A model generated the notes under the pieces. That model searched no databases, was not told where the DNA came from, and worked only from the letters and a program-made list of their open reading frames with translations. Both the position numbers and the translations under genes were made by a program. Source: an uncultured Veillonellaceae bacterium (lineage in GTDB: Bacteria; Bacillota; Negativicutes; Veillonellales; Dialisteraceae). From it: a stretch of 64,000 nucleotides of DNA. The stretch is taken from the NCBI GenBank assembly GCA_958348245.1, contig CATVYJ010000005.1, positions 13,625-77,624 on the forward strand, in the 5' to 3' direction. Of the stretch, positions 45,307 through 61,890 are shown piece after piece; position 1 is the first letter of the stretch; every line of letters begins with the position of its first letter.

Positions 45307-45316
45307 GGAGGACAGC

Positions 45317-46687: not shown

Positions 46688-46964
46688 TACGACCCTCTGT
46701 AAATGAGACAGCGGCATCAGTCAAGGCCGCTGTCTTTTATTACACCTGGACAATTTTTTCTAAATTCTTTTATAAACACAGAATAAATCATATAAAGAAA
46801 GAGAAAAACATCGACAGACAAGGCCCCTGGGAAAGAAGAAGGGGCCGTTTTTACGGCCCAATTCATAAATACGAGATTATGGGATAAGGCAGAGAAGGGC
46901 ATGATTCGGAAAGGGATATAAAATAAATCTGGCAGAAGACAACAGCCATACATAGTCTTATGCA

Positions 46965-46993
46965 TTGACAGGTAAAGCCGCCTCCCGTACAAT
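46965..46993 (+). promoter_or_regulatory. sigma70 promoter TTGACA-N17-TACAAT driving cassette 1
   Basis: ttgaca ggtaaagccgcctcccg tacaat gaaaac, in an AT-rich 0.5-kb intergenic region. Confidence 0.65.
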
Positions 46994-47030
46994 GAAAACG
47001 TGGTTATTGAGATTACGAAACTCAATCATC

Positions 47031-47070
47031 ATGTATTCTATGGTCAAAAAGGAGGATAGCAGATAAGACC
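47031..47070 (+). promoter_or_regulatory. conserved leader hairpin motif (copy 1) in the roughly 190-nt 5'UTR of cassette 1
   Basis: gtATTCTatGGTCaaAAAGGAGGatagcagataaGACCg. See the copies at 50211 and 58877. Confidence 0.4.
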
Positions 47071-47193
47071 GAAATTTGTAAGTAGTTATAAACTGCATGA
47101 TTTATGATATTGATAGAAAATGACGAGTAATGATTTATAATCATGTAGACTTATAACGAATGTACAAACTCAGTTAGAGGAGGATTTGTTATT

Positions 47194-48357
47194 ATGATGG
47201 ACACTCTGGCTCAGAACAGCCATCTGTTTGATGAACTGTTTCAGGGCGTATACGGCGTCGCGGACATCGGCATCCTGTCCATGTTCGTCATCGGCTTTAT
47301 CCTGATGTTCCTCGCCGTCAGATACGACTATGAACCGATGCTGCTCTTCCCGATGGGCGTCGGCTGTATTCTGGCCAACATCCCCGGTCACTATGCCGTA
47401 CTGCAGGAACCGGGCGCGGAAGGCTTCCTTTTCGTTCTCTACAAAGCAGGCATTGCCAATGAACTTTTCCCGGTCATGATCTTTATCGCCATCGGCGCGA
47501 TGTGCGAATTCAGCCCGCTTATGAGAAAACCCTACGTGATGTTCTTCGCGGCGGCTGCGCAGTTCGGTATCTTCATGACGGCGTTCCTCGCGGCGCTGGT
47601 AGGCTTCCCCTTCAACCAGGCGGCCTCCATCGGCATCATCGGCGCGGCTGACGGCCCGACCACCATTTTCGTCGCTTCCCGTTATGCGCAGGAAATGCTC
47701 GGACCGTTGTCCGTAGCGGCGTACTGCTACATGTCCCTCGTACCGGTCATCCAGCCCCCGATCATCAAGCTGCTCACCACGAAGAAAGAACGCCAGATCC
47801 GCATGCCCTTCACCGGCGACACCCCGGTATCTGACCGCGCTCTCTTCATTTTCCCGCTGATGATCGTCATGGTCGCCGGCATCGTGGCTCCCATGTCCGT
47901 ACCGCTCATCGGCGCCCTCATGTTCGGCAACCTGCTGAAAGTGTCCGGCTGCACGGATCAGCTCGCGAACTGCGCGAAGGATGACCTGTCCAACCTCGTC
48001 ACCCTGTTCCTCGGTCTGGTCGTAGGCTCCACCATGACGGCGGAAAACTTCCTGACCTTCGACGTGTTCAAGATCCTCTGCCTCGGCGCGGTGGCCTTCG
48101 TATTCGATACGGCAGGCGGCGTCCTCTTCGCAAAGATCCTGAACCTCTTCCTCGCGAAGAAGATCAACCCCATGATCGGCGCGTGCGGCATCTCCGCATT
48201 CCCCATGTCCGGCCGTGTTATCGCTAAAATGGCGCTGAAAGACGATCCCACGAACTTCATCGTGCAGGATGCCATCGGCGTCAACGTAGCCGGCCAGATC
48301 GCATCCGTCGTCGCAGGCGGTCTCGTTGTCTGCATGATTCCGATGCTGTCCAAGTAA
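47194..48357 (+). CDS. Na+-translocating decarboxylase beta subunit (OadB/GcdB/MmdB family), paralog A1
   Basis: 387 aa, ...AASIGIIGAADGPTTIFVASRYA...LVPVIQPPIIKLLTTKKERQIRM...FGNLLKVSG...KINPMIGACGISAFPMSGRV... These are the hallmark OadB motifs (compare AAAIGIIGGADGPTAIY, LIQPPIMKALTT..ERKIRM, INPLIGSAGVSAVPMAARV). Confidence 0.8.
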   Translation: MMDTLAQNSHLFDELFQGVYGVADIGILSMFVIGFILMFLAVRYDYEPMLLFPMGVGCILANIPGHYAVLQEPGAEGFLFVLYKAGIANELFPVMIFIAIGAMCEFSPLMRKPYVMFFAAAAQFGIFMTAFLAALVGFPFNQAASIGIIGAADGPTTIFVASRYAQEMLGPLSVAAYCYMSLVPVIQPPIIKLLTTKKERQIRMPFTGDTPVSDRALFIFPLMIVMVAGIVAPMSVPLIGALMFGNLLKVSGCTDQLANCAKDDLSNLVTLFLGLVVGSTMTAENFLTFDVFKILCLGAVAFVFDTAGGVLFAKILNLFLAKKINPMIGACGISAFPMSGRVIAKMALKDDPTNFIVQDAIGVNVAGQIASVVAGGLVVCMIPMLSK

Positions 48358-48372
48358 GGAGGCCTTTCATAC

Positions 48373-48492
48373 ATGGAACCGACAAGTGCAGCTCTTTTCC
48401 AGATGGTGGTCTGCGTACCGCTCATGTTCGTCGTCATCGGCATTTTCGTTCTGCTCACCAAGGGCCTGACGAAACTGTTCCCGGCGAAATAA
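48373..48492 (+). CDS. 39-aa single-TM peptide, OadG (gamma subunit) N-terminal-anchor-like. It is below the ORF-track size cutoff.
   Basis: MEPTSAALFQMVVCVPLMFVVIGIFVLLTKGLTKLFPAK, SD aaggagg 10 nt upstream. Compare the OadG N-terminus ...[41 protein letters not shown]. Confidence 0.6.
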   Translation: MEPTSAALFQMVVCVPLMFVVIGIFVLLTKGLTKLFPAK

Positions 48493-48630
48493 TCCGGCTG
48501 GAATTCTGAAACATTCGGAATGAGGGGGGCCCTCGAAAGCCTTCCGCGTCCCTCAAGGCGCGCTCCCGCCTTTCTTCCGGGAAAGCGCGGGAACACACCT
48601 CTTTTACCTGAAAAGGCGGTGTAAATCCCA
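48493..48630 (+). promoter_or_regulatory. conserved structured intercistronic spacer (nested hairpins + U-rich tail) between the mini-peptide gene and the Dcu gene. It is a candidate attenuator or RNA-processing site.
   Basis: gaggggggccctc, then cgcgcuCCCGccuuucuuCCGGGaaagcgcg, then acacaccucuuuuacc. It is about 95% identical to 51665-51804, more than the flanking coding DNA. Confidence 0.45.
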
Positions 48631-49941
48631 ATGGATATTTCGACTCCCGCTCTTGCCTCCATCATCGTACTGGTGGCAATCGTCGTATTCTCCTGCTTCC
48701 GCGATATCAACGTAGGTATCCTCGGCACGGCAGGGGGCCTTCTGGTCGGCATGATGTTTGCCGGCATGAAAATCAGCGAAGTCTACAAAGGCTGGCCGCT
48801 GTCCCTGTTCATGATCCTCGTGGGCGTTACGTTCATGTTCTCCGCCGCGCAGGTGAACGGCACCATGGAGAAATTCTCCGCGGTGTGCGTCCGTCTCGCC
48901 AAGGGCAACGTGGCTCTCATCCCGATCATTCTCTTCGTTCTCGTGACCTTCATCACCACCATCGGCCCCGGCAACATTGCCTCCACGGCCCTGATGGCTC
49001 CCATGTGCATGGCCATTGCAGGCCGCATCGGCCTCTCCCCGTTCTGCATGACGCTGCTCGTCGTCGGCGCGGCAAACGGCGCGGCCCTGTCTCCTTTCGC
49101 TCCGACCGGCATCATCTCCAACGGCCTCATCGCCCAGTGGGCGCCCCAGGTGGGCATCCCCACGGAGGAACTGTCCGGCATCGCCTGGAAGATTCACTGG
49201 AACTCTGAAATCGTACAGAGCGTCGTCAACTTCGGCGGCTTCTTCCTCACCGGCGGCCTCGCCTGGATGAGCAAGGCCAAGAGCGGCGGCGCGGACTTCG
49301 ACATCGACTCCATCGCTCCGAAGCCGGAACCCTTCGACTGGAAACAGAAGTACACCCTCTTCACGATGCTCGTCCTCGTGTGCGGCGTCATTTTCTTCAA
49401 ACTCGACGTAGGCATGCTCGCCTTCTGCATCGGCACCACCTTCATCCTCTTCAACATCGCGGATGACGGCGAAGCCGTGAAGAAAATGCCCTGGGGCGTC
49501 ATCGTCATGGTCTGCGGCATGTCCGTCCTGATCAACGTCATGGATAAGGCGGGCGGCCTGAACGCCCTCGTCGACATGATCGCCGTCGTATCCAACGGCA
49601 CGACCATCACCGGCGTCGTAGGCTTCATCGCGGGCCTGCTCTCCGCATACTCCAGCTCCTCCGGCGTCATCATGCCCATGTTCCTCAGCATGGTGCCGGG
49701 GCTCCTTGAAGCGGTGAATACCGTCGATGCGGACCACGCGGTCCGTCTGGCATCCGCCATCGACATCGGCGCTCACCTCGTCGATACGTCCCCGCTGTCC
49801 ACGCTGGGCGCGCTGTGCATCGCCAACGCGGTCACCGAAGACAAGGGCATTCTCTTCCGCAATCTGCTCCTGTGGGGGCTCTCCATGTCCGTCGTAGGCG
49901 GCGTCGTCTGCTACGTGGCCTTCGGTCTGCTCGGCCTGTAA
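48631..49941 (+). CDS. Dcu-family (DcuA/DcuB-like) anaerobic C4-dicarboxylate transporter, paralog B1
   Basis: 436 aa polytopic. It matches the DcuA/B N-terminal pattern (IIVLVAIVVFSCFRD.NVGILGTAGGLLVG versus DcuA VELIIVLLAIFLGARLGGIGIGFAGGLGV), a central ...TIGPGNIAS...LSPFAPTG, and the C-terminus. Confidence 0.6.
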   Translation: MDISTPALASIIVLVAIVVFSCFRDINVGILGTAGGLLVGMMFAGMKISEVYKGWPLSLFMILVGVTFMFSAAQVNGTMEKFSAVCVRLAKGNVALIPIILFVLVTFITTIGPGNIASTALMAPMCMAIAGRIGLSPFCMTLLVVGAANGAALSPFAPTGIISNGLIAQWAPQVGIPTEELSGIAWKIHWNSEIVQSVVNFGGFFLTGGLAWMSKAKSGGADFDIDSIAPKPEPFDWKQKYTLFTMLVLVCGVIFFKLDVGMLAFCIGTTFILFNIADDGEAVKKMPWGVIVMVCGMSVLINVMDKAGGLNALVDMIAVVSNGTTITGVVGFIAGLLSAYSSSSGVIMPMFLSMVPGLLEAVNTVDADHAVRLASAIDIGAHLVDTSPLSTLGALCIANAVTEDKGILFRNLLLWGLSMSVVGGVVCYVAFGLLGL

Positions 49942-49983
49942 GGCTGTCAACCGGACGCGGAAGAAAACAGACAGATGACAGAA

Positions 49984-50020
49984 AACTGGAAACGTACTTC
50001 GTGTCGTTTCCAGTTTTTTT
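49984..50020 (+). terminator. intrinsic terminator of cassette 1
   Basis: aactggaaacg tacttcgtgt cgtttccagtt ttttt. Confidence 0.7.
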
Positions 50021-50146
50021 GTGCGTAAAATAGACAGTGCAAATGATAACAAATCGTATATAAATCCGTCATTTCTCTATCCACGGAAACAACCATTTGT
50101 CAAATCGCATTTCTAAACCGGCCGGAGCGGGGGAAATCCCCTCTGA

Positions 50147-50175
50147 TTGACACCCAAAATGGCAAATCTTACAAT
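50147..50175 (+). promoter_or_regulatory. sigma70 promoter TTGACA-N17-TACAAT driving cassette 2
   Basis: ttgaca cccaaaatggcaaatct tacaat gaaacc. Confidence 0.6.
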
Positions 50176-50210
50176 GAAACCGTACTTATGGGCCACCAGA
50201 CCCGGCGTAC

Positions 50211-50250
50211 GCATTCTATGGTCGAAAAGGAGGGCAGCAGACAAGACCGA
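50211..50250 (+). promoter_or_regulatory. conserved leader hairpin motif (copy 2)
   Basis: gcATTCTatGGTCgaAAAGGAGGgcagcagacaaGACCg. Confidence 0.4.
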
Positions 50251-50371
50251 CAATGGCTGCGCGTTATAAACGCGTCTTTTATGAAGTCGATAGAATTACG
50301 GAAATGTCCTTCATGAAGACGAGAGAAAAATAACGGCGCGCAATATTTTCCTAAGAGGAGGAATTTTTAAC

Positions 50372-51532
50372 ATGGACACTCTGGCTCAGAACAGCGGTCT
50401 GTTTGACGAGCTTTTCCAGGGCATTTACGGACTGGCAGATGTGGGCATCCTCGCGATGTTCGTCGTCGGCTTCATCCTCATGTTCCTCGCCGTCAGATAC
50501 GACTATGAACCGATGCTGCTCTTCCCGATGGGCATCGGCTGCGTTCTTGCAAACATTCCCGGACACTACGCAGTGCTCCAGGATCCCGGAAGCGAAGGCT
50601 TCCTGTACGTTCTCTACAAAGCGGGTATCGCAAACGAACTTTTCCCGGTCATGATCTTTATCGCCATTGGTGCAATGTGCGAATTTGACCCGCTTATGAG
50701 AAAGCCGTTCGTCATGCTCTTCGCAGCAGCGGCTCAGTTCGGTATCTTCATGACTGCGTTCCTCGCGACGCTCCTCGGCTTCCCCTTCAACCAGGCGGCA
50801 GCCATCGGCATCATCGGCGCAGCTGACGGCCCGACCACGATCTTCGTCGCTTCCCGCTATGCGCAGGAAATGCTTGGACCGTTGTCCGTAGCGGCGTACT
50901 GCTACATGTCCCTCGTACCGGTTATTCAGCCTCCGATCATCAAACTGCTCACCACCAAACATGAACGCAAGATCCGTATGCCGTTCACCGGTGAAGCTCC
51001 GGTTTCTGATCGCGCACTCTTCATTTTCCCGCTGATGATCGTCATGGTCGCCGGCGTTGTAGCTCCTATTTCCGTACCGCTCATCGGCGCTCTCATGTTC
51101 GGCAACCTGCTGAAGGTATCCGGCTGCACCGACGACCTGGCAGACTGCGCGAAGGATGACCTGTCCAACCTCGTCACCCTGTTCCTCGGCCTGGTCGTAG
51201 GCTCCACCATGACGGCGGAAAACTTCCTGACCTTCGACGTATTCAAGATCCTCTGCCTCGGCGCGGTCGCATTCGTATTCGATACCGCCGGCGGCGTCAT
51301 CTTCGCGAAGATCGTCAATCTGTTCCTGACCAAGAAGATCAACCCGATGATCGGCGCATGCGGCATCTCCGCATTCCCGATGTCCGGCCGTGTTATCGCC
51401 AAGATGGCGCTGAAAGAAGATCCGACGAACTTCATCGTCCAGGATGCTATCGGCGTCAACGTAGCTGGTCAGATCGCCTCCGTTGTTGCCGGCGGCCTCG
51501 TGCTCTGCATGATCCCGCTGCTGTCTAAATAA
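50372..51532 (+). CDS. Na+-translocating decarboxylase beta subunit (OadB family), paralog A2
   Basis: 386 aa. About 85% identical to A1. From about residue 100 it is identical to A3 in protein and, over more than 600 bp, in DNA. Confidence 0.8.
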   Translation: MDTLAQNSGLFDELFQGIYGLADVGILAMFVVGFILMFLAVRYDYEPMLLFPMGIGCVLANIPGHYAVLQDPGSEGFLYVLYKAGIANELFPVMIFIAIGAMCEFDPLMRKPFVMLFAAAAQFGIFMTAFLATLLGFPFNQAAAIGIIGAADGPTTIFVASRYAQEMLGPLSVAAYCYMSLVPVIQPPIIKLLTTKHERKIRMPFTGEAPVSDRALFIFPLMIVMVAGVVAPISVPLIGALMFGNLLKVSGCTDDLADCAKDDLSNLVTLFLGLVVGSTMTAENFLTFDVFKILCLGAVAFVFDTAGGVIFAKIVNLFLTKKINPMIGACGISAFPMSGRVIAKMALKEDPTNFIVQDAIGVNVAGQIASVVAGGLVLCMIPLLSK

Positions 51533-51544
51533 GGAGGTCTTAGT

Positions 51545-51664
51545 ATGAATCCTGTAAGTGCAGCTCTTTTCCAGATGGTGGTCTGCGTACCGCTCATGTT
51601 CGTCGTTATCGGCGTTTTCGTTCTGCTCACCAAGGGCCTGACGAAAATGTTCCCGGCGAAATAA
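51545..51664 (+). CDS. 39-aa OadG-anchor-like mini-peptide (copy 2)
   Basis: MNPVSAALFQMVVCVPLMFVVIGVFVLLTKGLTKMFPAK, SD aaggagg. Confidence 0.6.
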   Translation: MNPVSAALFQMVVCVPLMFVVIGVFVLLTKGLTKMFPAK

Positions 51665-51804
51665 TCTGGCTGGAATTCTGAAACATTCGGAATGAGGGGG
51701 GCCCTCGAAAGCCTCCCGCGTCCCTCAAGGCGCGCTCCCGCGCTTTCTCACGGGAAGGCGCGGGAACACACCTCTTTTTACCTGAAAAGGTGGTGTAAAT
51801 CCCA

Positions 51805-53118
51805 ATGGATATTTCGACCCCGGCACTTGCCTCCATCATCGTACTGGTGGCAATCGTCCTGTTCTCCTGCTTCCGGGATATCAACGTAGGTATCCTCGGC
51901 ACCGCAGGCGGTCTGATTGTCGGCATGGTATTCTCCGGCATGAAGATCAATGAAGTCTACAAAGGCTGGCCGCTGTCCCTGTTCATGATCCTCGTCGGCG
52001 TAACGTTCATGTTCTCCGCCGCACAGGTTAACGGCACGATGGAGAAATTCTCCGCGATCTGCGTACGTCTTGCGAAAGCAAACATCCGCCTGATTCCGTT
52101 CATTCTGTTCTTCCTCGTGACCTTCATCACGACCATCGGCCCCGGCAACATCGCAACCACCGCTCTGATGGCTCCGATGTGCATGGCCATTGCAGGCCGT
52201 ATCGGCCTCTCCCCGTTCTGCATGACGCTGCTCGTAGTCGGCGCGGCAAACGGCGCGGCCTTCTCTCCTTTCGCTCCGACCGGCATCATTTCCAACGGCA
52301 TCATCGCCAGCTGGGCTCCGCAGGTCGGCATTCCTCAGGAAGCTCTTTCCGGTCTCGGCTGGAAGATTCACTGGAACTCTGAAATCGCTCAGGGCGTCGT
52401 CAACTTCGGCGGCTTCTTCCTGACCGGCGGCCTTGCCTGGATGGGCAAAGCCAAAGGCGGCGCGGACTTCGACATCGATTCCATCGCTCCGAAGCCGGAC
52501 GCATTTGACTGGAAGCAGAAGTACACCCTCTTCACGATGGTCGTACTGGTTGTAGGCGTTATCGCCTTCCACCTGGACGTAGGCATGCTTTCCTTCGTTA
52601 TCGGCACGACCTACATCCTCTTCAACATTGCTGACGACGGCGAAGCCGTAAAGAAAATGCCCTGGGGCGTCATCGTCATGGTCTGCGGTATGTCTGTCCT
52701 GATCAACGTCATGGATAAGGCAGGCGGCCTGAACGCTCTCATCGACATGATCGCCATCGTGTCCAACGGCACGACCATCAACGGCGTGGTCGGCTTCATC
52801 GCAGGTCTGATTTCCGCATACTCCAGCTCCTCCGGCGTTGTCATGCCGATGTTCCTGAACATGGTTCCCGGCCTGCTGCAGGCTGTGGGCACCTTTGATG
52901 CAGATCATGCGGTTCGTCTCGCATCCTCCATCAATATCGGCGCTCACCTCGTAGATACCTCCCCGCTGTCCACCCTCGGCGCGCTCTGCATTGCAAACGC
53001 GGCTGTAGACGACAAGGCGAAGGGCGTACTCTTCCGGAACCTCCTGTTCTGGGGTCTGTCCATGTCCGTCGTAGGCGCAGTGGTCTGCTACGTATTCTTC
53101 GGTCTGCTCGGCCTGTAA
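51805..53118 (+). CDS. Dcu-family C4-dicarboxylate transporter, paralog B2
   Basis: 437 aa, MDISTPALASIIVLVAIVLFSCFRDINVGILGTAGGLIVG... About 95% identical to B4, with 100% DNA-identical tracts. Confidence 0.6.
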   Translation: MDISTPALASIIVLVAIVLFSCFRDINVGILGTAGGLIVGMVFSGMKINEVYKGWPLSLFMILVGVTFMFSAAQVNGTMEKFSAICVRLAKANIRLIPFILFFLVTFITTIGPGNIATTALMAPMCMAIAGRIGLSPFCMTLLVVGAANGAAFSPFAPTGIISNGIIASWAPQVGIPQEALSGLGWKIHWNSEIAQGVVNFGGFFLTGGLAWMGKAKGGADFDIDSIAPKPDAFDWKQKYTLFTMVVLVVGVIAFHLDVGMLSFVIGTTYILFNIADDGEAVKKMPWGVIVMVCGMSVLINVMDKAGGLNALIDMIAIVSNGTTINGVVGFIAGLISAYSSSSGVVMPMFLNMVPGLLQAVGTFDADHAVRLASSINIGAHLVDTSPLSTLGALCIANAAVDDKAKGVLFRNLLFWGLSMSVVGAVVCYVFFGLLGL

Positions 53119-53142
53119 TCCTTTACAGCGCAGGCAGCTGAT

Positions 53143-53180
53143 AAAAAACACAGCTTTCTTCGGAAGGCTGTGTTTTTTTG
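53143..53180 (+). terminator. intrinsic terminator of cassette 2
   Basis: aaaaaacacagctttcttcggaaggctgtgtttttttg. Confidence 0.7.
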
Positions 53181-53194
53181 CGCGCCCGCGGCAA

Positions 53195-53460
53195 AGCGCG
53201 GCCCGGCATACAGAGAACAGAAAAGAAACGGACGGCGCGGGAAACGGAGGATGGAAAAGGAGAAAACGGAGACGGGAGAGGGCGGAGGCAGCCGGAAGCG
53301 GGGAGGAACGGAAACGAGGCGGGAAGCGCGGAGACCGGGAAAGGCGGAGGGCCCGCGCTTCCGCCCGGCGCTTCGATGAGGGCCGCGGACAAGGGGGCGG
53401 AGAACGGGTGTGCGGCCCTTCCGCGGCGGACGTCCGCAGAAGAGCGGGCAGGGAGAATAT
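53195..53460 (+). repeat. roughly 260-nt strongly purine-skewed (GA-rich) low-complexity tract
   Basis: acagagaacagaaaagaaacggacggcgcgggaaacggaggatggaaaaggagaaaacggagacgggagagggcggaggcagccggaagcggggaggaacggaaacgaggcgggaagcgcggagaccgggaaaggcggaggg... Almost no pyrimidines on the + strand. Confidence 0.6.
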
Positions 53461-53566
53461 AAATAAAAACTTTCGGAAAATACAAATAAAAAGAAAAAGA
53501 GAGCGCATCCGGAACGGCTATTAAAGAAATCTATAAGAGGACATGTCAAAATTCTTTCAAAATGAA

Positions 53567-53595
53567 TTGACTGTATAGACGGGCTTTGCTATGAT
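53567..53595 (+). promoter_or_regulatory. sigma70 promoter TTGACT-N17-TATGAT for the solitary Dcu gene B3
   Basis: ttgact gtatagacgggctttgc tatgat. Confidence 0.55.
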
Positions 53596-53774
53596 AGGCG
53601 GGCAATGCCCAAAACCGGCCAGTGTACCGTATGATACACACCGGAAAAGAAGACGGGCGAGCGGCGCAGTTTACAGATCTCATTCCTATTTTTCTTCCGC
53701 GCGCTCCCGCCTCGGGCAGGCAGCCGGTTCAGGCAGGGGACATCCCCGCCATTTCTCACGACGGACTCCGCATG

Positions 53775-53800
53775 GGCGGGCCCGCTTTCTTTTCAAGGTG
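53775..53800 (+). promoter_or_regulatory. hairpin + U-tract (attenuator-like) just upstream of the B3 RBS
   Basis: catgggcgggcccgctttcttttcaagg, then ggtggtgtaaag RBS. Confidence 0.4.
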
Positions 53801-53813
53801 GTGTAAAGTTTTA

Positions 53814-55127
53814 ATGGAAATTTCAACCCCGGCTCTTGCCTCCATCATCGTACTGGTGGCAATCGTCCTGTTTTCCTGCTTCCGGGATATCAACGTAGGT
53901 ATCCTCGGCACGGCAGGCGGTCTGCTGGTGGGCATGCTCTTCTCGGGCATGAAAATCAGCGAAGTCTACGAGGGCTGGCCTCTCAGCCTCTTCATGATCC
54001 TCGTGGGCGTGACGTTCATGTTCTCCTGCGCGCAGGTGAACGGCACCATGGAAAAATTCTCCGCGGTGTGCGTCCGTCTGGCCAAGGCGAATGTGGCGCT
54101 CATTCCGATCATCATGTTCCTGCTGACCACGTTCATCGTGACCATCGGCCCCGGCAACATTGCGGGCACGGCGCTCCTCGCGCCGGTCGCCATGGCGATC
54201 GCCGGCCGTATCGGCCTCTCCCCGTTCTGCATGACGCTGCTCGTGGTCGGCGCGGCAAACGGCGCGGCTTTCTCTCCTTTCGCACCGACGGGCATCATCT
54301 CCAACGGCATCATCGCCGGCTGGGCTCCGCAGGTAGGCATTCCGGCGGATCAGCTGGACAGCCTGGCCTGGAAAGTGCATTTCAACTCTGAAATCGCGCA
54401 GGGCATCGTCAACTTCGGCGGCTTCTTCCTCACGGGCGGCGCGGCATGGATGATGCGCGCCCGCAAAGACGCGAGCTTCGACATCGACTCCATCGCTCCG
54501 AAGCCGGGCGCTTTCGACTGGAAGCAGAAGTACACCCTTCTCACCATGGTCGTTCTCGTGGTGGGCGTCATTTTCTTCAAACTTGACGTAGGCATGCTCT
54601 CCTTCATCATCGGCACCACCTACATTCTCTTCAACATCGCCGACGACGGCGAAGCCGTGAAGAAAATGCCCTGGGGCGTCATCGTCATGGTCTGCGGTAT
54701 GTCTGTCCTGATCAACGTCATGGACCAGGCGGGCGGCCTGAACGCGCTCGTCCAGATGATCGCCGTCGTATCGAACGACACCACCGTGACCGGCGTGGTG
54801 GGCTTCATCTCCGGCCTCATCTCCGCGTACTCCAGCTCCTCCGGCGTCGTCATGCCCATGTTCCTCAACATGGTGCCCGGCCTGCTCGAAGCAGTGGGCA
54901 CGGTGGACGCGGACCATGCGATCCGTCTCGCTTCTTCCATCAACATCGGCTCCCACCTGGTGGATACGTCTCCGCTGTCCACGCTGGGCGCGCTCTGCAT
55001 CGCGAACGCCGCTGTAGACGACAAGGCGAAGGGCATCCTCTTCCGGAATCTGCTCTTCTGGGGCCTCTCCATGTCCATCGTGGGCGGCTTCGTGTGCTAC
55101 GTCGCATTCGGCCTGCTCGGCCTCTGA
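53814..55127 (+). CDS. Dcu-family C4-dicarboxylate transporter, paralog B3 (solitary, with no OadB partner)
   Basis: 437 aa, MEISTPALASIIVLVAIVLFSCFRDINVGILGTAGGLLVG... Internal start; the upstream part of the 501-aa track ORF is leader. Confidence 0.6.
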   Translation: MEISTPALASIIVLVAIVLFSCFRDINVGILGTAGGLLVGMLFSGMKISEVYEGWPLSLFMILVGVTFMFSCAQVNGTMEKFSAVCVRLAKANVALIPIIMFLLTTFIVTIGPGNIAGTALLAPVAMAIAGRIGLSPFCMTLLVVGAANGAAFSPFAPTGIISNGIIAGWAPQVGIPADQLDSLAWKVHFNSEIAQGIVNFGGFFLTGGAAWMMRARKDASFDIDSIAPKPGAFDWKQKYTLLTMVVLVVGVIFFKLDVGMLSFIIGTTYILFNIADDGEAVKKMPWGVIVMVCGMSVLINVMDQAGGLNALVQMIAVVSNDTTVTGVVGFISGLISAYSSSSGVVMPMFLNMVPGLLEAVGTVDADHAIRLASSINIGSHLVDTSPLSTLGALCIANAAVDDKAKGILFRNLLFWGLSMSIVGGFVCYVAFGLLGL

Positions 55128-55156
55128 TATCCATGTATAGTGCCTGAACCGCACGC

Positions 55157-55185
55157 AACCGCAGCCATGCCGGCTGCGGTTTTTG
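55157..55185 (+). terminator. intrinsic terminator after B3
   Basis: aaccgcagcc atgcc ggctgcggtt tttg. Confidence 0.65.
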
Positions 55186-55354: not shown

Positions 55355-55846
55355 ATGACGGTGGAAATCATTCCCGGCTGGGAACGGCCGGACGACGTGC
55401 GGGCGCTTTTTGCGGAGTATACGGCGCTGCTCGTTCGCGGGGACCCGGCGTTTGCCGGCTATCTGGAATTGCAGAAGTACGACGACGAGCTGAAACATCT
55501 GCGCCGGAAATACGGACCGCCCGCGGGGCGTCTCTATGCGGCGTATGCGGACGGCGCACCCGCCGGATGCGCCGCCCTGAAGCCGATCGACGGCGCATCG
55601 TGCGAATTGAAGCGGCTCTATGTGCGGCCTGCGTACCGCGGAAACCGTCTCGGCCGCCTTCTCGTGGAGCGGATTCTCGAGGACGCCCGGACCATCGGGT
55701 ATGCGGCGGTCTATCTGGATACGCTTCCCTTCCTGCGGGACGCGATCCGCCTGTACCGGCAGTGCGGATTCCGGGACGTCCCCAAATGGAACGACAGCCC
55801 CATGGAGGCGGCTCTTTATATGAAACTGGATTTGGAGGATATATAA
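55355..55846 (+). CDS. GNAT-family N-acetyltransferase
   Basis: MTVEIIPGWERPDDV...ELKRLYVRPAYRGNRLGRLLVERILEDARTIGYAAVYLDT (acetyl-CoA binding Q/RxxGxG/A motif). Confidence 0.75.
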   Translation: MTVEIIPGWERPDDVRALFAEYTALLVRGDPAFAGYLELQKYDDELKHLRRKYGPPAGRLYAAYADGAPAGCAALKPIDGASCELKRLYVRPAYRGNRLGRLLVERILEDARTIGYAAVYLDTLPFLRDAIRLYRQCGFRDVPKWNDSPMEAALYMKLDLEDI

Positions 55847-55898
55847 ATAAGAAAAAATAGAGAAACCGCCGGAGCGGCGGAGGAAGGAGGGGCAGACG

Positions 55899-56573
55899 AT
55901 GGAAGCCTTTGCGGCGGGCGGGAAAACCGTGACGCTCTATCCGGCGGATGCGGCGGACGCGCCGGTGCTGGTCCTGCCCGTGTACGATGGAGACGGGGCG
56001 GACGTGGCGCAGGCCCTCGCCGGGCGGCAGGCTCCGCCGGCGCATCTCGCCGTGATCGGCGGCCTCGACTGGGGCGGGGACATGACGCCCTGGCCGTGCC
56101 CGCCGCTCTCGAGATATGACGCGCCCTGTACGGGCGGGGCGGACCGTTGTCTCGCCGGGCTGACGGAGCGCATCCTTCCCGAAGCGGAGCGCCGCATGGG
56201 CGCGCGGCCCTGCTGGCGGGGGATCGCGGGGTATTCGCTGGCGGGGCTCTTCGCGCTCTACGCGCTGTACCGGACGGACGTCTTTTCCCGCGCGGCATCC
56301 GTGTCGGGCTCGCTCTGGTTTCCCCGCTTTCTGGAATACGCGGAGACGCATGCCATGGCTGCAAAGCCTTCGCGGGTCTATTTCTCGCTGGGCGGACGGG
56401 AAGCGCGCACGCGCCATCCCCTGATGAAGACGGTGCAGGCGCGGACGGAGGCCGTGGAGCGCCTCTTCCGTGCGCGCGGGGCGGAGACGGTTTTTGTGCA
56501 GAACCGGGGCGGCCATTTCACCGATCCCGCGGGGCGCACGGCGGCGGGCATCGACTGGCTGCTGCGCGGGTAG
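55899..56573 (+). CDS. alpha/beta-hydrolase esterase (putative-esterase family)
   Basis: ...WRGIAGYSLAGLFALYA (GxSxG nucleophile elbow), 224 aa. Confidence 0.6.
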   Translation: MEAFAAGGKTVTLYPADAADAPVLVLPVYDGDGADVAQALAGRQAPPAHLAVIGGLDWGGDMTPWPCPPLSRYDAPCTGGADRCLAGLTERILPEAERRMGARPCWRGIAGYSLAGLFALYALYRTDVFSRAASVSGSLWFPRFLEYAETHAMAAKPSRVYFSLGGREARTRHPLMKTVQARTEAVERLFRARGAETVFVQNRGGHFTDPAGRTAAGIDWLLRG

Positions 56574-56753
56574 CATTGGAGCGGGAGGAAACGGGAACGG
56601 AAGAGCCTTGCCGGAGGAGGCGGAGACCTTTGCGGGTTTCCGCTTTTTGCATGCGCGTTCCGCATTGTACGGCGGCGGGGCGGTGTGATATAATGCACGG
56701 CGTCTCTGTCTTGAAGAGACGGTATATATAAGTAGACAGAAAGAGGGGACGCA

Positions 56754-57695
56754 ATGATTCGGAATATTCCTGTACCGGCGGCGGGGGTCATGCTCGGGCT
56801 GGCCGCGCTGGGGCATCTGCTGGCGCCGTACGGCCTGCCGCTCAAATATCTCTGCGGCGTGTGCGCGCTGTTTCTGGGGCTGCTTCTGCTGGCCCGCGCG
56901 GCGCGCTATCCGCGGGCGCTTCTGCAGGATCTGAACGGCAGCTCCGTCCTGGGGAGCGTGGCCGCCACGTTTTTCATGGCGTGGGTGCAGCTCGCAGCCT
57001 ATGCCGCGCCGTTTGCGCCGGGCGCGGGGCATGCGCTGTGGCTGGCTGCGGCGGCGGGCCATACGGCGCTCATGGGATGGTTTACGGCGCGCTATCTGCG
57101 CAGGCCCGCGCTGCGCGACGTGTTTCCCACCTATTTCATCGCCTACGTGGGGCTCATCGCGGCGTCGGTCACCGCGCCGGCTTTTGGCGAAGAGGCGCTG
57201 GGCGCGTGGATTTTCCGCTTCGGGTTCGCGGCGTATGTGGCGCTCTTCGTGCTCGTCACCGTGCGCTATCTGAAAGAGAGGGACATCCCCGAGCCGGCGC
57301 GGCCTCTCTTCTGCATTTACGCCGCGCCCATGAGCCTGTCGCTCGCGGGGTATCTCGCGTGCATGCCGGAGAAATCGACGGAGGCGGTGCTGCTCATGGC
57401 GGGGCTCGCGCAGATTTTCTACGCGGTGGTGATCGTCCGCCTGCCCGGCCTGCTCCGCCTGCCTTTCTATCCGAGCTATGCGGCCTTTACCTTTCCCTGC
57501 GTGATTTCCGCGGCGGCGCTCCGGCAGGCGCTGATGCATCTGGACGGCGCGGGCGTGGCGGTGCCGGCGGCGTATCATCTGCTGGCGGAAGCGGAAACGG
57601 CGGTGGCCGCGGCGGTCGTCTTCTATGTGTTCGCCCGGTACCTGCATTTCCTGTTCCGCCGCGCTCCGGCGCGGGCCGCTGAGGGGGCGGCGTAA
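56754..57695 (+). CDS. TDT-family transporter (TehA/Mae1-like C4-dicarboxylate / tellurite-resistance transporter)
   Basis: 313 aa, 10-TM profile, MIRNIPVPAAGVMLGLAALGHLLAPYG... typical of TehA/TDT proteins. Confidence 0.6.
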   Translation: MIRNIPVPAAGVMLGLAALGHLLAPYGLPLKYLCGVCALFLGLLLLARAARYPRALLQDLNGSSVLGSVAATFFMAWVQLAAYAAPFAPGAGHALWLAAAAGHTALMGWFTARYLRRPALRDVFPTYFIAYVGLIAASVTAPAFGEEALGAWIFRFGFAAYVALFVLVTVRYLKERDIPEPARPLFCIYAAPMSLSLAGYLACMPEKSTEAVLLMAGLAQIFYAVVIVRLPGLLRLPFYPSYAAFTFPCVISAAALRQALMHLDGAGVAVPAAYHLLAEAETAVAAAVVFYVFARYLHFLFRRAPARAAEGAA

Positions 57696-57700
57696 ACATT

Positions 57701-57754
57701 CCCAAATAAAAAAGAACGGACGCGTGACGGCGTATCCGTTCTTTTTTATTTGGG
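57701..57754. terminator. bidirectional terminator (near-perfect palindrome with A/T-runs on both sides)
   Basis: cccaaataaaaaagaacggacgcgtgacggcgtatccgttcttttttatttggg. Confidence 0.7.
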
Positions 57755-57758
57755 ACGT

Positions 57759-58598
57759 TTATTTTTCTTTCGGCAGGGCCGCTGTCTGCGCGGCGTCCGT
57801 GCCCTCTTCGGAGGACGGTTCCGCTTCGGCTGCGGGGACCGCGCCGCTTTCTCCGGCGTCTGCTGCCGGCGCTTCCGCGGCTTCGCCGGTCTCCGGCGCT
57901 TGTGCTGCGGCTTCATTCACCGGTTCCGCCTCATGGGCCGCCGGATGGGCGGTCGGTTTTTCCGTGTCCTCTGCGGCGGCGTCCTTCGCTTCTTCCGCGG
58001 CGAGCGCGGCGGCTTCCGCCTTCTTCGCGCGGTTGCGGTTCTTCTTCTGCTCCGCGCCGCTGATGTAATGGAACGCGTGCTTCAGCACTTCATTCTGGGA
58101 GACGCGGATGCGTCCGGGCACGCGCTTTTCAAATTCTTCCCAGAATTCGTCCGACGCTTTCATGAGCACCCGGGAGACCTTGTCCGTGCCGGGCATATTG
58201 TATACGAGCGACCAGATGTCCCGCTTGTCCAGATTGCCGTACATGCGGTACGTGTGCCGGTAGGAGATCGCCTTGATGGGCTCCACCTTGAAATGGAAGG
58301 CCCCGTCCATGGCGCTGTAGGGGATGGCCATTTTCCGTGTGCGGAAGAGCGACGCCTTGATGATGACCAGCTCTTTCGCGTGGAGTTCGTATGTGGTGCG
58401 GGTGAGCGTCATGCTCAGGAGGAAGAGCAGGAGCAGCGCTTCCGTGAGAATGTCCAGCCACGGCATCTGATGATTGTTGTAGATATACCGCACCGTCATC
58501 ATCACATACCCCAGGAGGCAGATGCCCAGCGTGCCGTAGACGTACATGTACGTGCGGTGCACTTCGGAGCGTTCCGTTACGATTTTTTCTTCCTTCAT
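57759..58598 (-). CDS. hypothetical membrane protein with an acidic Ala/Glu-rich low-complexity C-terminal tail
   Basis: 279 aa, MKEEKIVTERSEVHRTYMYVYGTLGICLLGYVMMTVRYIY...; tail ...AEEAKDAAAEDTEKPTAHPAAHEAEPVNEAAAQAPETGEAAEAPAADAGE... Confidence 0.5.
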   Translation of the reverse strand: MKEEKIVTERSEVHRTYMYVYGTLGICLLGYVMMTVRYIYNNHQMPWLDILTEALLLLFLLSMTLTRTTYELHAKELVIIKASLFRTRKMAIPYSAMDGAFHFKVEPIKAISYRHTYRMYGNLDKRDIWSLVYNMPGTDKVSRVLMKASDEFWEEFEKRVPGRIRVSQNEVLKHAFHYISGAEQKKNRNRAKKAEAAALAAEEAKDAAAEDTEKPTAHPAAHEAEPVNEAAAQAPETGEAAEAPAADAGESGAVPAAEAEPSSEEGTDAAQTAALPKEK

Positions 58599-58806
58599 AG
58601 AGACTCCTTTGATTCGCAGAATATACGGGAAATATACAGACCTATTTTACACCAAAACCATGAATAAATCATAACAAAATGAGCAATAAAAAATGTAACA
58701 GAAAATCTACAGAATAAAACGATCAAGTTACTGTAAGATAAAATATAAACTGGAGCGTTAGAGAAAAAAGAGACATGCAATATTATCTAAACAAAAATAT
58801 TTCATA

Positions 58807-58835
58807 TTGACGAAGAAAAGTTTAGCGATTAGAAT
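58807..58835 (+). promoter_or_regulatory. sigma70 promoter TTGACG-N17-TAGAAT driving cassette 4
   Basis: ttgacg aagaaaagtttagcgat tagaat, in an AT-rich 0.4-kb intergenic region. Confidence 0.6.
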
Positions 58836-58876
58836 CGAGGCATGACAGGGTGTACGGACCCCGTACGCCCCGCCGC

Positions 58877-58916
58877 ATTCTCAGCCGGAAAGGAGGACAG
58901 TGGGTCAGGCTGGAAT
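58877..58916 (+). promoter_or_regulatory. conserved leader hairpin motif (copy 3, with compensatory stem change)
   Basis: gcATTCTcAGCCggAAAGGAGGacagtgggtcaGGCTgg. The stem AGCC/GGCT replaces GGTC/GACC of copies 1 and 2. Confidence 0.4.
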
Positions 58917-59033
58917 TTCATCCCGGGCGCTCCGGCGGAACCCATCAATCCAAAACTTGCAAAATCACAAATCCTGTTTCCGCAGGGGAAGAGGGGATGA
59001 AAGAAATATCTTTCTTCATAAGGAGGACTTATC

Positions 59034-60194
59034 ATGGATATGTTGGCACAGAATAGCCAGCTGTTTGACGAGCTTTTCCAGGGCGTGTACGGACTGGCCG
59101 ACGTCGGCGTGCTGTCGATGTTTGTCGTAGGCTTCATCCTCATGTTCCTCGCCGTCAAATACGATTATGAACCGGTCCTGCTGTTCCCGATGGGCATCGG
59201 ATGCATTCTTGCAAACATCCCGGGCCATTACGCAGTACTCCAGGATCCCGGAAGCGAAGGCTTCCTGTATGTGCTTTATCAGGCGGGTGTCGCAAACGAA
59301 CTTTTCCCGGTCATGATTTTTATCGCCATTGGTGCAATGTGCGAATTTGACCCGCTGATGAGAAAGCCTTTCGTCATGCTCTTCGCAGCAGCCGCTCAGT
59401 TTGGTATCTTCATGACCGCGTTCCTCGCGACGCTCCTCGGCTTCCCCTTCAACCAGGCGGCGGCTATCGGCATCATCGGCGCGGCTGACGGCCCGACCAC
59501 GATCTTCGTCGCTTCCCGCTATGCGCAGGAAATGCTTGGACCGTTGTCCGTAGCGGCGTACTGCTACATGTCCCTCGTACCGGTTATTCAGCCTCCGATC
59601 ATCAAACTGCTCACCACCAAACATGAACGCAAGATCCGTATGCCGTTCACCGGTGAAGCTCCGGTTTCTGATCGCGCACTCTTCATTTTCCCGCTGATGA
59701 TCGTCATGGTCGCCGGCGTTGTAGCTCCTATTTCCGTACCGCTCATCGGCGCTCTCATGTTCGGCAACCTGCTGAAGGTATCCGGCTGCACCGACGACCT
59801 GGCAGACTGCGCGAAGGATGACCTGTCCAACCTCGTCACCCTGTTCCTCGGCCTGGTCGTAGGCTCCACCATGACGGCGGAAAACTTCCTGACCTTCGAC
59901 GTATTCAAGATCCTCTGCCTCGGCGCGGTCGCATTCGTATTCGATACCGCCGGCGGCGTCATCTTCGCGAAGATCGTCAATCTGTTCCTGACCAAGAAGA
60001 TCAACCCGATGATCGGCGCATGCGGCATCTCCGCATTCCCGATGTCCGGCCGTGTTATCGCCAAGATGGCGCTGAAAGAAGATCCGACGAACTTCATCGT
60101 CCAGGATGCTATCGGCGTCAACGTAGCTGGTCAGATCGCATCGGTCGTTGCAGGCGGCCTCGTCCTCTGCATGATCCCGATGCTTATGCAGTGA
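59034..60194 (+). CDS. Na+-translocating decarboxylase beta subunit (OadB family), paralog A3
   Basis: 386 aa, MDMLAQNSQLFDELFQGVYGLADVGVLSMFVVGFILMFLAVKYDYEP... The 3' two-thirds are identical to A2. Confidence 0.8.
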   Translation: MDMLAQNSQLFDELFQGVYGLADVGVLSMFVVGFILMFLAVKYDYEPVLLFPMGIGCILANIPGHYAVLQDPGSEGFLYVLYQAGVANELFPVMIFIAIGAMCEFDPLMRKPFVMLFAAAAQFGIFMTAFLATLLGFPFNQAAAIGIIGAADGPTTIFVASRYAQEMLGPLSVAAYCYMSLVPVIQPPIIKLLTTKHERKIRMPFTGEAPVSDRALFIFPLMIVMVAGVVAPISVPLIGALMFGNLLKVSGCTDDLADCAKDDLSNLVTLFLGLVVGSTMTAENFLTFDVFKILCLGAVAFVFDTAGGVIFAKIVNLFLTKKINPMIGACGISAFPMSGRVIAKMALKEDPTNFIVQDAIGVNVAGQIASVVAGGLVLCMIPMLMQ

Positions 60195-60209
60195 TTGGAG
60201 GGATAAGTT

Positions 60210-60329
60210 ATGAATCCAGTAGCAGCATCCCTTTTCCAGATGGTGGTATGCGTACCGCTGATGTTCCTGGTCATCCTCATTTTCGTGGGTCTCACGAAGC
60301 TCCTCACGAAGATGTTCCCCGCAGAATAA
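60210..60329 (+). CDS. 39-aa OadG-anchor-like mini-peptide (copy 3)
   Basis: MNPVAASLFQMVVCVPLMFLVILIFVGLTKLLTKMFPAE, SD ggaggg. Confidence 0.6.
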   Translation: MNPVAASLFQMVVCVPLMFLVILIFVGLTKLLTKMFPAE

Positions 60330-60424
60330 TTCTGCCCGATCCTTTATTTTCCACATAAAGGCGTGCCCCCGTATCCGCGAGGGTGCGGGGACCCACCTCT
60401 TCCATGCAAAGGTGGTGTAAACCA

Positions 60425-61738
60425 ATGGATATTTCGACCCCGGCTCTTGCCTCCATCATCGTACTGGTGGCAATCGTCCTGTTCTCCTGCTTCCGGGACT
60501 GCAACGTAGGTATTCTCGGCACGGCAGGGGGCCTTCTGGTCGGCATGGTCTTCGCAGGCATGAAGATCAGCGCTGTCTACAAAGGCTGGCCGCTGTCTCT
60601 GTTCATGATCCTCGTCGGCGTAACGTTCATGTTCTCCGCCGCACAGGTCAACGGCACGATGGAAAAATTCTCGGCTGTGTGCGTACGTCTTGCGAAAGCA
60701 AACATTCGCCTGATTCCGTTCATTCTGTTCTTCCTCGTGACCTTCATTACGACCATCGGCCCCGGCAACATCGCTTCCACCGCTCTGATGGCTCCGATGT
60801 GCATGGCTATCGCTGGCCGTATCGGCCTCTCCCCGTTCTGCATGACGCTGCTCGTAGTCGGCGCGGCAAACGGCGCGGCCTTCTCTCCTTTCGCTCCGAC
60901 CGGCATCATTTCCAACGGCATCATCGCCAGCTGGGCTCCGCAGGTCGGCATTCCTCAGGAAGCTCTTTCCGGTCTCGGCTGGAAGATTCACTGGAACTCT
61001 GAAATCGCTCAGGGCGTCGTCAACTTCGGCGGCTTCTTCCTCACCGGCGGCCTTGCCTGGATGGCAAAGGCCAAAGGCGGCGCGGACTTCGACATCGATT
61101 CCATCGCTCCGAAGCCGGAACCCTTCGACTGGAAGCAGAAATACACCCTGCTCTCCATGGTCGTCCTGGTAGTAGGCGTTATTTTCTTCAAACTCGACGT
61201 AGGCATGCTCTCCTTCTGCATCGGCACCACGTACATCCTCTTCAACATTGCGGATGACGGCGATGCAGTGAAGAAAATGCCCTGGGGCGTCATCACCATG
61301 GTCTGCGGTATGTCTGTCCTGATCAACGTCATGGACGAGGCAGGCGGCCTGAACGCTCTCGTTGATATGATCGCTGTCGTTTCCAACGGCACGACCGTCA
61401 ACGGCGTGGTCGGCTTCATCGCAGGTCTGATTTCCGCATACTCCAGCTCCTCCGGCGTTGTCATGCCGATGTTCCTGAACATGGTTCCCGGCCTGCTGCA
61501 GGCTGTGGGCACCTTTGATGCAGATCATGCGGTTCGTCTCGCATCCTCCATCAATATCGGCGCTCACCTCGTAGATACCTCCCCGCTGTCCACCCTCGGC
61601 GCGCTCTGCATTGCAAACGCGGCTGTAGACGACAAGGCGAAGGGCGTCCTCTTCAGAAACCTCCTCTTCTGGGGCCTGTCCATGTCCATTGTCGGCGCAG
61701 TGGTCTGCTATGTCTTCTTCGGTCTCCTCGGACTGTAA
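60425..61738 (+). CDS. Dcu-family C4-dicarboxylate transporter, paralog B4
   Basis: 437 aa, MDISTPALASIIVLVAIVLFSCFRDCNVGILGTAGGLLVG... Internal start after aaaggtggtgtaaacca. Confidence 0.6.
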   Translation: MDISTPALASIIVLVAIVLFSCFRDCNVGILGTAGGLLVGMVFAGMKISAVYKGWPLSLFMILVGVTFMFSAAQVNGTMEKFSAVCVRLAKANIRLIPFILFFLVTFITTIGPGNIASTALMAPMCMAIAGRIGLSPFCMTLLVVGAANGAAFSPFAPTGIISNGIIASWAPQVGIPQEALSGLGWKIHWNSEIAQGVVNFGGFFLTGGLAWMAKAKGGADFDIDSIAPKPEPFDWKQKYTLLSMVVLVVGVIFFKLDVGMLSFCIGTTYILFNIADDGDAVKKMPWGVITMVCGMSVLINVMDEAGGLNALVDMIAVVSNGTTVNGVVGFIAGLISAYSSSSGVVMPMFLNMVPGLLQAVGTFDADHAVRLASSINIGAHLVDTSPLSTLGALCIANAAVDDKAKGVLFRNLLFWGLSMSIVGAVVCYVFFGLLGL

Positions 61739-61783
61739 GATAGAACGCGGCAGTGTCGGAAGCGCAGGCTTCTGAATGCGCGG

Positions 61784-61820
61784 AAAACCGTGATTGTCTT
61801 TTGACAGTCACGGTTTTTTT
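61784..61820 (+). terminator. intrinsic terminator of cassette 4
   Basis: aaaaccgtgattgtcttttgacagtcacggttttttt. Confidence 0.7.
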
Positions 61821-61890
61821 GTGCGCGGAAAACGGGCGCGGCGGCGGTGCGCCCGCGTGCGGGGCAATAAAAAAAGACCGGAGCGTCCGG

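Follow-up and report, generated by a model that had tools for sequence, protein, structure and literature searches.

The stretch of DNA analysed here, 64,000 nucleotides (nt) of contig CATVYJ010000005.1 (assembly GCA_958348245.1) from an uncultured Veillonellaceae bacterium and hereafter the window, carries three cassettes, each made up of an OAD_beta gene, a gene for a peptide of 39 amino acids (aa) and a MatC-type carrier gene, together with a fourth, solitary carrier gene. Judged by homology and gene order, this triad appears to be the distal block of a succinate-to-propionate operon, detached from the genes of the soluble enzymes and present in three separately promoted copies plus an extra carrier. 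We consider it probable, with moderate confidence, that the cassette represents the membrane half of a biotin-dependent Na+-pumping acyl-CoA decarboxylase joined to its substrate carrier, serving succinate or a similar dicarboxylate with partners encoded elsewhere. This model is favoured because the same block ends complete operons of that pathway and because the beta subunits keep the residues of the Na+ sites. The four units delimited by the initial annotation (47194-49941, 50372-53118, 53814-55127 and 59034-61738) were all present as open reading frames (ORFs):

47194..48357, + strand: B1, MmdB-like Na+-translocating decarboxylase beta subunit, 387 aa (Pfam OAD_beta, TIGR01109, 6IVA_A alignment)
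48373..48492, + strand: s1, 39-aa single-helix peptide, conserved small partner of the beta subunit (NF040909-like)
48631..49941, + strand: T1, predicted MatC_N/CitMHS dicarboxylate carrier, 436 aa (Pfam)
50372..51532, + strand: B2, beta subunit, 386 aa (OAD_beta, TIGR01109)
51545..51664, + strand: s2, 39-aa peptide
51805..53118, + strand: T2, MatC_N/CitMHS carrier, 437 aa (Pfam)
53814..55127, + strand: T3, solitary MatC_N/CitMHS carrier, 437 aa (Pfam)
59034..60194, + strand: B4, beta subunit, 386 aa (OAD_beta, TIGR01109)
60210..60329, + strand: s4, 39-aa peptide
60425..61738, + strand: T4, MatC_N/CitMHS carrier (homologous start ATG 60425; the ORF is readable from GTG 60383)

The origin of the triad is best seen in other genomes. 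In Sporomusa malonica and Thermosinus carboxydivorans, homologues of the carrier (about 70% identity) are encoded at the distal end of a long operon. The 5' part of that operon encodes an AcetylCoA_hydro CoA-transferase (succinyl-CoA/propionate type), the large and B12 subunits of methylmalonyl-CoA mutase, MeaB and an epimerase; the middle part encodes MmdA (Carboxyl_trans), a 90-aa OAD_gamma-like protein and a 133-aa biotin carrier whose best NCBIfam match is MmdC; and the 3' part encodes an OAD_beta protein, a peptide of 51-53 aa, one or two MatC-type carriers, a CoA_transf_3 protein and an unnamed 181-aa protein. A carrier-profile scan of one genome per species was followed by tblastn with Sporomusa proteins on all fetched loci. 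The order A-(D)-C-B-s-X (alpha, D protein, biotin carrier, beta, small peptide and one to three copies of the carrier) was found by tblastn in about 25 loci from Sporomusaceae, Acidaminococcales (including several Phascolarctobacterium), other Negativicutes metagenome-assembled genomes (MAGs) and one MAG labelled as Geobacteraceae, indicating that beta, peptide and carrier form a conserved distal block of the succinate-to-propionate cluster. A related order, A-C-B-X, occurs in Cutibacterium with no match to the small peptide. The tripartite gene order is thus kept in related genomes, both in sister MAGs and in these complete operons. In Phascolarctobacterium faecium, the gene next after beta in the succinate-pathway cluster encodes an "SLC13/DASS family transporter", and this carrier was highly expressed in co-culture with a succinate-producing Bacteroides and was proposed to be the succinate importer (PMC7568257). 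The adjacency of beta and carrier, part of an arrangement that the initial annotation did not recognise as described, was therefore already on record.

The assignment of the three large first-gene products to the OadB/MmdB/GcdB family of beta subunits stands far above curated thresholds: B1, B2 and B4 match Pfam OAD_beta (PF03977) at 457-458 bits (cut-off 31.6) and TIGR01109 at about 381 bits (cut-off 190.6), and B1 aligns to the solved Salmonella OadB chain 6IVA_A at 283 bits. Residues were mapped in Salmonella OadB numbering over an alignment of 54 related betas, with roles taken from the structure paper (PMC7274780). B1 retains Glu40, Asp203, Tyr229, Asn373, Gly377, Ser382, Arg389, Asn412 and Ser419. 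Nine positions (Glu40, Asp203, Tyr229, Asn315, Asn373, Gly377, Ser382, Arg389 and Asn412) are invariant in all 54 proteins, while Ser419 is kept in every stand-alone beta and is Thr in two operon-linked ones. The Na+ sites of the cassette betas therefore look intact at the sequence level. Two further residues, Arg304 and Asn311, are essential in Salmonella OadB and lie on the cytoplasmic face of its structure (PMC7274780). The Arg304 position is occupied by Asn in 28 of 32 operon-type MmdB proteins and by Gln in B1, and varies within the stand-alone clade. At the Asn311 position, 28 of the 32 operon MmdB proteins have Asn, whereas B1 has Asp, as do 9 of 15 stand-alone betas. These changes appear modest and would fall near the presumed carboxybiotin side of the protein.

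The carriers were originally assigned to the Dcu type, an assignment that had to be dropped: none of the four matches DcuA_DcuB (PF03605) or DcuC (PF03606) at E <= 0.01, and all match MatC_N (PF07158) at 97-106 bits (cut-off 23) and CitMHS (PF03600) at 51-65 bits (cut-off 31.9). Their homologues are named "SLC13 family permease" (NCBI) and "Dicarboxylate carrier MatC", and are present in the dicarboxylate-to-propionate fermenters Propionivibrio dicarboxylicus, Phascolarctobacterium, Sporomusa malonica and Cutibacterium. Among named records, the nearest ones (94% carrier identity) belong to MAGs labelled "uncultured Veillonellaceae" and "Veillonellales bacterium". The solitary carrier T3 is preceded by a GC-rich spacer of 695 nt (53119-53813), and tblastn found no trace of a decayed beta or peptide gene upstream of it. 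An in-frame GTG at 53622 extends its reading to 501 aa, and a 498-aa version is called in some assemblies.

The nature of the 39-aa peptides required closer consideration. Each of their ORFs has its own AAGGAGG ribosome-binding site. Their earlier label as OadG anchors is weakly supported: two of them score 20.3 and 18.3 bits against NF040909 ("OadG-related small transporter subunit"), below the cut-off of 25, the third has no match to that model, and none of the three matches Pfam OAD_gamma (PF04277). The P-x-M-F-x-V-I…F…T…L…F-P core and the F-P-A end are invariant across the peptide family (n=23), whose members have a single N-terminal membrane helix with a hydrophobic core; the gene always lies 10-15 nt 3' of the beta gene, and 13 of the 23 members match NF040909 (best E 1.3e-6). 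The profile of the small peptides found no OadG match in the PDB, and its hhalign comparison with the gamma chain of 6IVA (OadG) aligned only the F-F-P-E-P motif after the helix, with a probability of 6%. The peptides of the window end at residue 39, right after F-P-A-K/E, and have no C-terminal alpha-binding segment. In complete operons, the peptide usually bears an acidic tail, and the D protein begins with a run of lysines, lacks a membrane helix and matches the MmdD model over positions 40-107 of 112. We infer that in this clade the delta/gamma anchor has been split into a membrane-helix peptide and a soluble piece, the 39-aa peptide being probably the membrane-anchor half of a split MmdD/OadG. 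In Sporomusa malonica, a helix-less MmdD-like protein with a lysine-rich start (7690-7962 of locus L008) and a strongly acidic-tailed peptide after the beta gene (9713-9874) were observed; the two, apparently parts of one anchor encoded by separate genes, may dock by charge. The locus tags RS04470 and RS04475 of P. faecium are consecutive (in PMC7568257), with no annotated small peptide able to fit between them, and the peptide of 39-53 aa accordingly appears to be unannotated and overlooked in at least one reference genome. It merits annotation as a subunit.

Pfam searches of nearly all large ORFs of the window, and tblastn with Sporomusa MmdA, MmdC and MmdD, revealed no CoA-transferase, B12 mutase, MeaB, epimerase, mmdA, mmdD or mmdC gene linked to the cassettes. 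A contig of another assembly continues for about 6 kb beyond the right edge of the window; this added DNA holds two genes for periplasmic-binding proteins and, again, no alpha gene. The statement that no alpha or biotin-carrier subunit lies nearby is thereby upheld. Proteins identical to those of the window are found on many gut-metagenome contigs (up to 1.93 Mb). A search of metagenome contigs for an MmdA of the same organism, using a GC-biased DNA pattern for GADQVxAWP, gave none among the matches listed, which were mostly environmental high-GC homologues. The best candidate for this alpha, at locus L102, was rejected, as a homologue search assigns it to Selenomonadaceae (Mitsuokella/Selenomonas).

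The block also stands alone, often in tandem and with no alpha or biotin carrier within 10 kb, in sister MAGs (L012-L014) and in a second organism (L005-L007), in which three tandem cassettes occupy a different neighbourhood, behind ATP synthase and a LysR gene. Two short contigs carry the same cassette type (L016, and L017 in tandem), with flanks too short to exclude a nearby alpha. Four Acidaminococcales MAG loci have no alpha upstream of the block, and one of them, L077, has a divergent carboxyltransferase about 1.6 kb downstream of the carrier. The gene order of that locus (8557-17093) is beta, peptide, MatC carrier, CoA_transf_3, the divergent carboxyltransferase (56% to MmdA), CoA_transf_3 and a DcuC-like carrier, which suggests that the membrane block could there serve another dicarboxylate pathway.

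A second form of alpha-less array was found in a 1.7-Mb contig (L089 1-17558) and in the Dialister genome to which it is related (L090 1-11287), where a cassette of DASS carrier (Na_sulph_symp), 42-aa peptide and 374-aa beta is repeated in tandem. The 42-aa peptide matches OAD_gamma, and the 374-aa beta is 43% identical to B1 and keeps all key residues. These arrays adjoin a B1-like beta of 383 aa with a peptide of 38-40 aa, so that 21 kb hold four or five genes for beta and none for alpha or a biotin carrier. Representative Dialister genomes have been reported to hold the full succinate-to-propionate cluster (PMC11441152). In Acidaminococcus, a beta 71% identical to B1 and a 52-aa peptide stand alone. 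The converse is seen in the Selenomonadaceae locus mentioned above (L102 3-1757), where mmdA, a 104-aa ORF and a biotin carrier are followed by unrelated genes with no beta, as in a mirror image of the alpha-less cassettes. Negativicutes thus often encode beta apart from alpha, and the generalisation of the initial annotation that the two are always encoded together fails in this class. Two versions of the association of beta and mini-anchor with a dicarboxylate carrier have arisen, and this speaks for a genuine functional connection.

In a neighbour-joining tree, the window-type and the Acidaminococcales stand-alone betas form two clades apart from the operon-embedded MmdB proteins, and the beta of L057, which has no alpha upstream, clusters with the operon betas. 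Each of the three betas of the window pairs with its own orthologue in the sister MAGs, indicating that the three-copy layout is older than those species. Within the window, identity between paralogues is 91-97% for beta, 74-90% for the peptide and 85-95% for the carrier. Between copies, the ratio of nonsynonymous to synonymous substitution rates (dN/dS) is 0.08-0.21, with dS of 0.17-0.62, which points to purifying selection on all paralogues; together with the orthologues in sister MAGs, this indicates that every copy has been maintained functional.

Signals for separate expression were located for all four units, in agreement with the proposal that each has its own promoter, a leader of roughly 190 nt and its own terminator. 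The promoter-like sites are of the sigma-70 type and score 10-11 of 12 against the consensus, with leaders of about 190-215 nt:

46965..46993, + strand: promoter-like site of cassette 1, TTGACA-17-TACAAT (11/12 consensus positions)
47041..47071, + strand: conserved leader hairpin of cassette 1, loop carrying AAAAGGAGG; the stem covaries
49986..50020, + strand: intrinsic terminator of cassette 1 (hairpin and T-run)
50147..50175, + strand: promoter-like site of cassette 2, TTGACA-17-TACAAT
50219..50249, + strand: conserved leader hairpin of cassette 2
53149..53179, + strand: intrinsic terminator of cassette 2 (hairpin and T-run)
53567..53595, + strand: promoter-like site of the solitary carrier T3, TTGACT-17-TATGAT
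55158..55184, + strand: intrinsic terminator after T3 (hairpin and T-run)
58807..58835, + strand: promoter-like site of cassette 3, TTGACG-17-TAGAAT
58882..58912, + strand: conserved leader hairpin of cassette 3, with covarying stem
61784..61820, + strand: intrinsic terminator of cassette 3 (hairpin and T-run)

The cassette leaders of the window and of the sister MAGs have in common a short 5' hairpin and a second hairpin, whose stem covaries (GGTC/GACC versus AGCC/GGCT) around an invariant GAAAGGAGG loop located about 130 nt upstream of the true ribosome-binding site. The leaders matched no Rfam family, with the window searched at gathering thresholds and the 46.6-62 kb region at E <= 1. STAB-SD is a stabiliser of mRNA in the cryIIIA leader of Bacillus thuringiensis, and the GAAAGGAGG hairpin resembles it by analogy; a leader of this kind would suit a need for very high expression.

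Taken as a working model, the MatC/CitMHS-type carrier would import external succinate or a close dicarboxylate, probably with Na+. A CoA-transferase, B12 mutase, epimerase and MmdA encoded elsewhere would then yield methylmalonyl-CoA and load its CO2 onto the biotin of MmdC, and the complex of MmdB-type beta and peptide would decarboxylate carboxybiotin and pump Na+ out, the resulting gradient paying for uptake and ATP synthesis. Having several copies may raise the dosage of the two membrane steps, the ones expected to limit a life on very little energy, and/or allow them to be regulated separately. Besides the synteny with complete operons and the Na+-site residues, we counted in support of this moderately probable reading the family scores, the expression of the P. 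faecium homologue, the selection on the copies, the bioY-bioD-bioA genes directly upstream and the layouts of Dialister, Acidaminococcus and, conversely, Selenomonadaceae. The earlier proposal of a module for import and Na+ export that would borrow biotinylated partners encoded elsewhere is thus the reading favoured by the evidence; the partners themselves were not located in the window, in the 6 kb beyond it or among the metagenome matches listed.

The same machinery might instead work on another substrate (malonate, glutarate/glutaconate, oxaloacetate from malate, fumarate, aspartate), with a GcdA-like or other alpha encoded elsewhere. The MatC family takes its name from a malonate carrier, the beta homologues closest among named records (70-72% identity, from Dialister, Acidaminococcus and Phascolarctobacterium) bear the annotation GcdB, and at L077 the block is followed by a different set of soluble partners (CoA_transf_3, divergent carboxyltransferase, DcuC). 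Nevertheless, the great majority of loci tie the block to mutase, epimerase and MmdA, that is, to the succinate route, and the P. faecium expression data likewise indicate succinate (PMC7568257), which makes another substrate unlikely in our estimation. An autonomous function that dispenses with alpha and biotin protein, the beta acting for instance as a Na+ channel, an exchanger or an accessory subunit of the carrier, corresponds to the new function for OadB paralogues raised by the initial annotation and appears still less probable. Such a function would fit the recurrence of alpha-less cassettes with two unrelated gene orders and carrier families (B-s-MatC; DASS–42-aa peptide–beta374), the name "small transporter subunit" given by NCBIfam to the peptide family, and the position of the cassette betas in a separate clade with changes at the cytoplasmic-face Arg304 and Asn311 positions. 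It is difficult to reconcile with the retention, in the cassette betas, of all residues for Na+ binding and of a working decarboxylase-beta fold, with the orthologous block inside complete mmd operons and with the biotin genes next door. We know of no precedent for a biotin-independent OadB.

That the extra copies are merely redundant, decaying duplicates or an artefact of assembly, as tandem paralogues with 85-97% identity might suggest, is hardly credible. The three-cassette layout recurs copy by copy in several independent assemblies and in sister species, the frames are intact with dN/dS of 0.08-0.21, and promoter, ribosome-binding sites and terminator are kept in each unit. Independent assemblies and purifying selection effectively refute a reading of the copies as pseudogenes or artefacts.

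Several observations count against the membrane-half model. There is no alpha (PF01039/OadA type), delta or Mmd/Gcd-type biotin carrier in the 64-kb window or the 6 kb or so beyond it. The cassette betas sit on a long branch of their own, apart from operon-embedded MmdB, and in B1 Gln and Asp replace the essential Arg304 and Asn311, although operon MmdB proteins also do without Arg304. The peptides of the window lack the acidic tail that most operon-linked peptides carry, which is one reason for some doubt that they bring in alpha as other anchors do. The 85-97% identity of the paralogues fits dosage better than distinct substrates. Finally, substrate and ion coupling of the carrier are putative: a PDB sequence search with the carrier found no relative, and we found no characterised close relative.

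Comparison with known systems helps to separate what is shared from what is particular to the window. With the succinate-to-propionate operon of Negativicutes (P. faecium and Sporomusa malonica, related to mmdADECB of Veillonella parvula), the window shares homologous beta, peptide and carrier genes in the same order, beta and carrier being about 68-70% identical to the last gene types of that operon. It differs in lacking CoA-transferase, mutase, epimerase, mmdA, mmdD and mmdC in the block, and in having three copies with their own promoters and terminators, an extra carrier, a tail-less peptide and a separate beta clade. The citS-oadGAB operon of Klebsiella combines a Na+ carrier and a Na+-pumping decarboxylase, and the Na+ gradient made by the pump drives Na+-citrate uptake. 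The likeness to this system (Klebsiella/Salmonella) lies in a carboxylate carrier gene accompanied by a gamma-type anchor and a beta, that of the window being homologous with Na+ sites kept. In contrast to citS-oadGAB, the window has no alpha gene, its 39-aa anchor has no alpha-binding tail, its carrier is MatC/CitMHS rather than 2-HCT, and the proposed substrate route would go via CoA esters. The Dialister arrays resemble the window as alpha-less, tandem associations of carrier, mini-peptide and beta in Veillonellales, but they are carrier-first, use a Na_sulph_symp/DASS carrier and have a peptide matching OAD_gamma, which the peptides of the window do not. In Acidaminococcus fermentans, the genes for glutaconyl-CoA decarboxylase are divided between one operon with gcdA and another with gcdDCB. 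This provides a precedent in Negativicutes for a beta encoded apart from alpha, although there the pair is single and has no carrier joined to it, and the substrate is glutaconyl-CoA. Our search of the literature found no description of alpha-less, multiplied, separately promoted cassettes, of their second, Dialister form or of the overlooked peptide.

The remaining genes of the window include the following:

346..1701, - strand: biotin carboxylase
1714..2208, - strand: AccB-type biotin carboxyl carrier protein (BCCP)
44001..46687, + strand: bioY-bioD-bioA (biotin uptake and synthesis), directly upstream of cassette 1; bioD and bioA pass NCBIfam equivalog cut-offs
46707..46740: terminator of bioY-bioD-bioA
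56754..57695: TDT/SLAC1-family protein (Pfam)
57759..58598, - strand: "u", 279 aa, no Pfam/NCBIfam match, distantly similar (26% identity) to the gene product of about 181 aa found after the carriers in complete operons

In line with the initial annotation, the AccB-type BCCP and the biotin carboxylase beside a PxpC-like gene are the sole biotin proteins of the window. They are grouped with the PxpC-like 5-oxoprolinase/urea-amidolyase-family protein at 346-3586 (- strand), followed by an Nramp-like membrane protein (3920-5815). Genes for biotin supply adjoin genes for subunits of a biotin-dependent pump. The TDT carrier named earlier at 56754-57695 was borne out by its TDT/SLAC1-family match. 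Homologues of "u" also flank the cassettes in the second organism (L005) and in the sister MAGs (L012-L014), and, from this recurrent position, "u" may be a conserved partner of the cassettes. A trimeric autotransporter adhesin of the YadA type (1226 aa, 12035-15715) agrees with a diderm host from the Negativicutes, and the organism was taken to be a high-GC gut member of the Veillonellales. Three clustered tRNA genes at 30040-30273 are the only RNAs found by Rfam. The GC content at third codon positions (GC3) is 0.74-0.86 in the cassette genes and about 0.85 in host genes, the low GC of the region coming from AT-rich spacers. A recent horizontal acquisition on GC grounds was accordingly rejected, as the GC3 of the cassettes is close to that of the host.

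What was already known is the logic of coupling a Na+-pumping decarboxylase to a carrier, as well as a succinate-pathway cluster with a trailing carrier; what is unusual here is the alpha-less, multiplied and separately promoted form. This form raises a question of assembly, namely how one soluble set of alpha and biotin carrier would serve several betas whose anchor has no alpha-binding tail. It also bears on succinate, a key metabolite of cross-feeding and host signalling in the gut. Few gut taxa remove succinate, and neither mmdA nor even the whole pathway predicts which of them consume it from outside (PMC11441152), which is why the arrangement matters. Since they pair uptake with Na+ extrusion, the cassettes are a countable and testable candidate for the missing determinant. 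A bolder and rather doubtful extension is that the beta with its mini-peptide and the carrier form one physical and regulatory unit, a local Na+ circuit, the carrier retaking the pumped Na+ together with succinate, so that the possession and copy number of cassettes, and not the mmdA pathway, would decide growth on extracellular succinate. If true, this would account for the consumption of succinate by Dialister and Phascolarctobacterium and for its absence in many carriers of mmdA (PMC11441152). The alpha-less layout itself may mark bacteria that live on external succinate.

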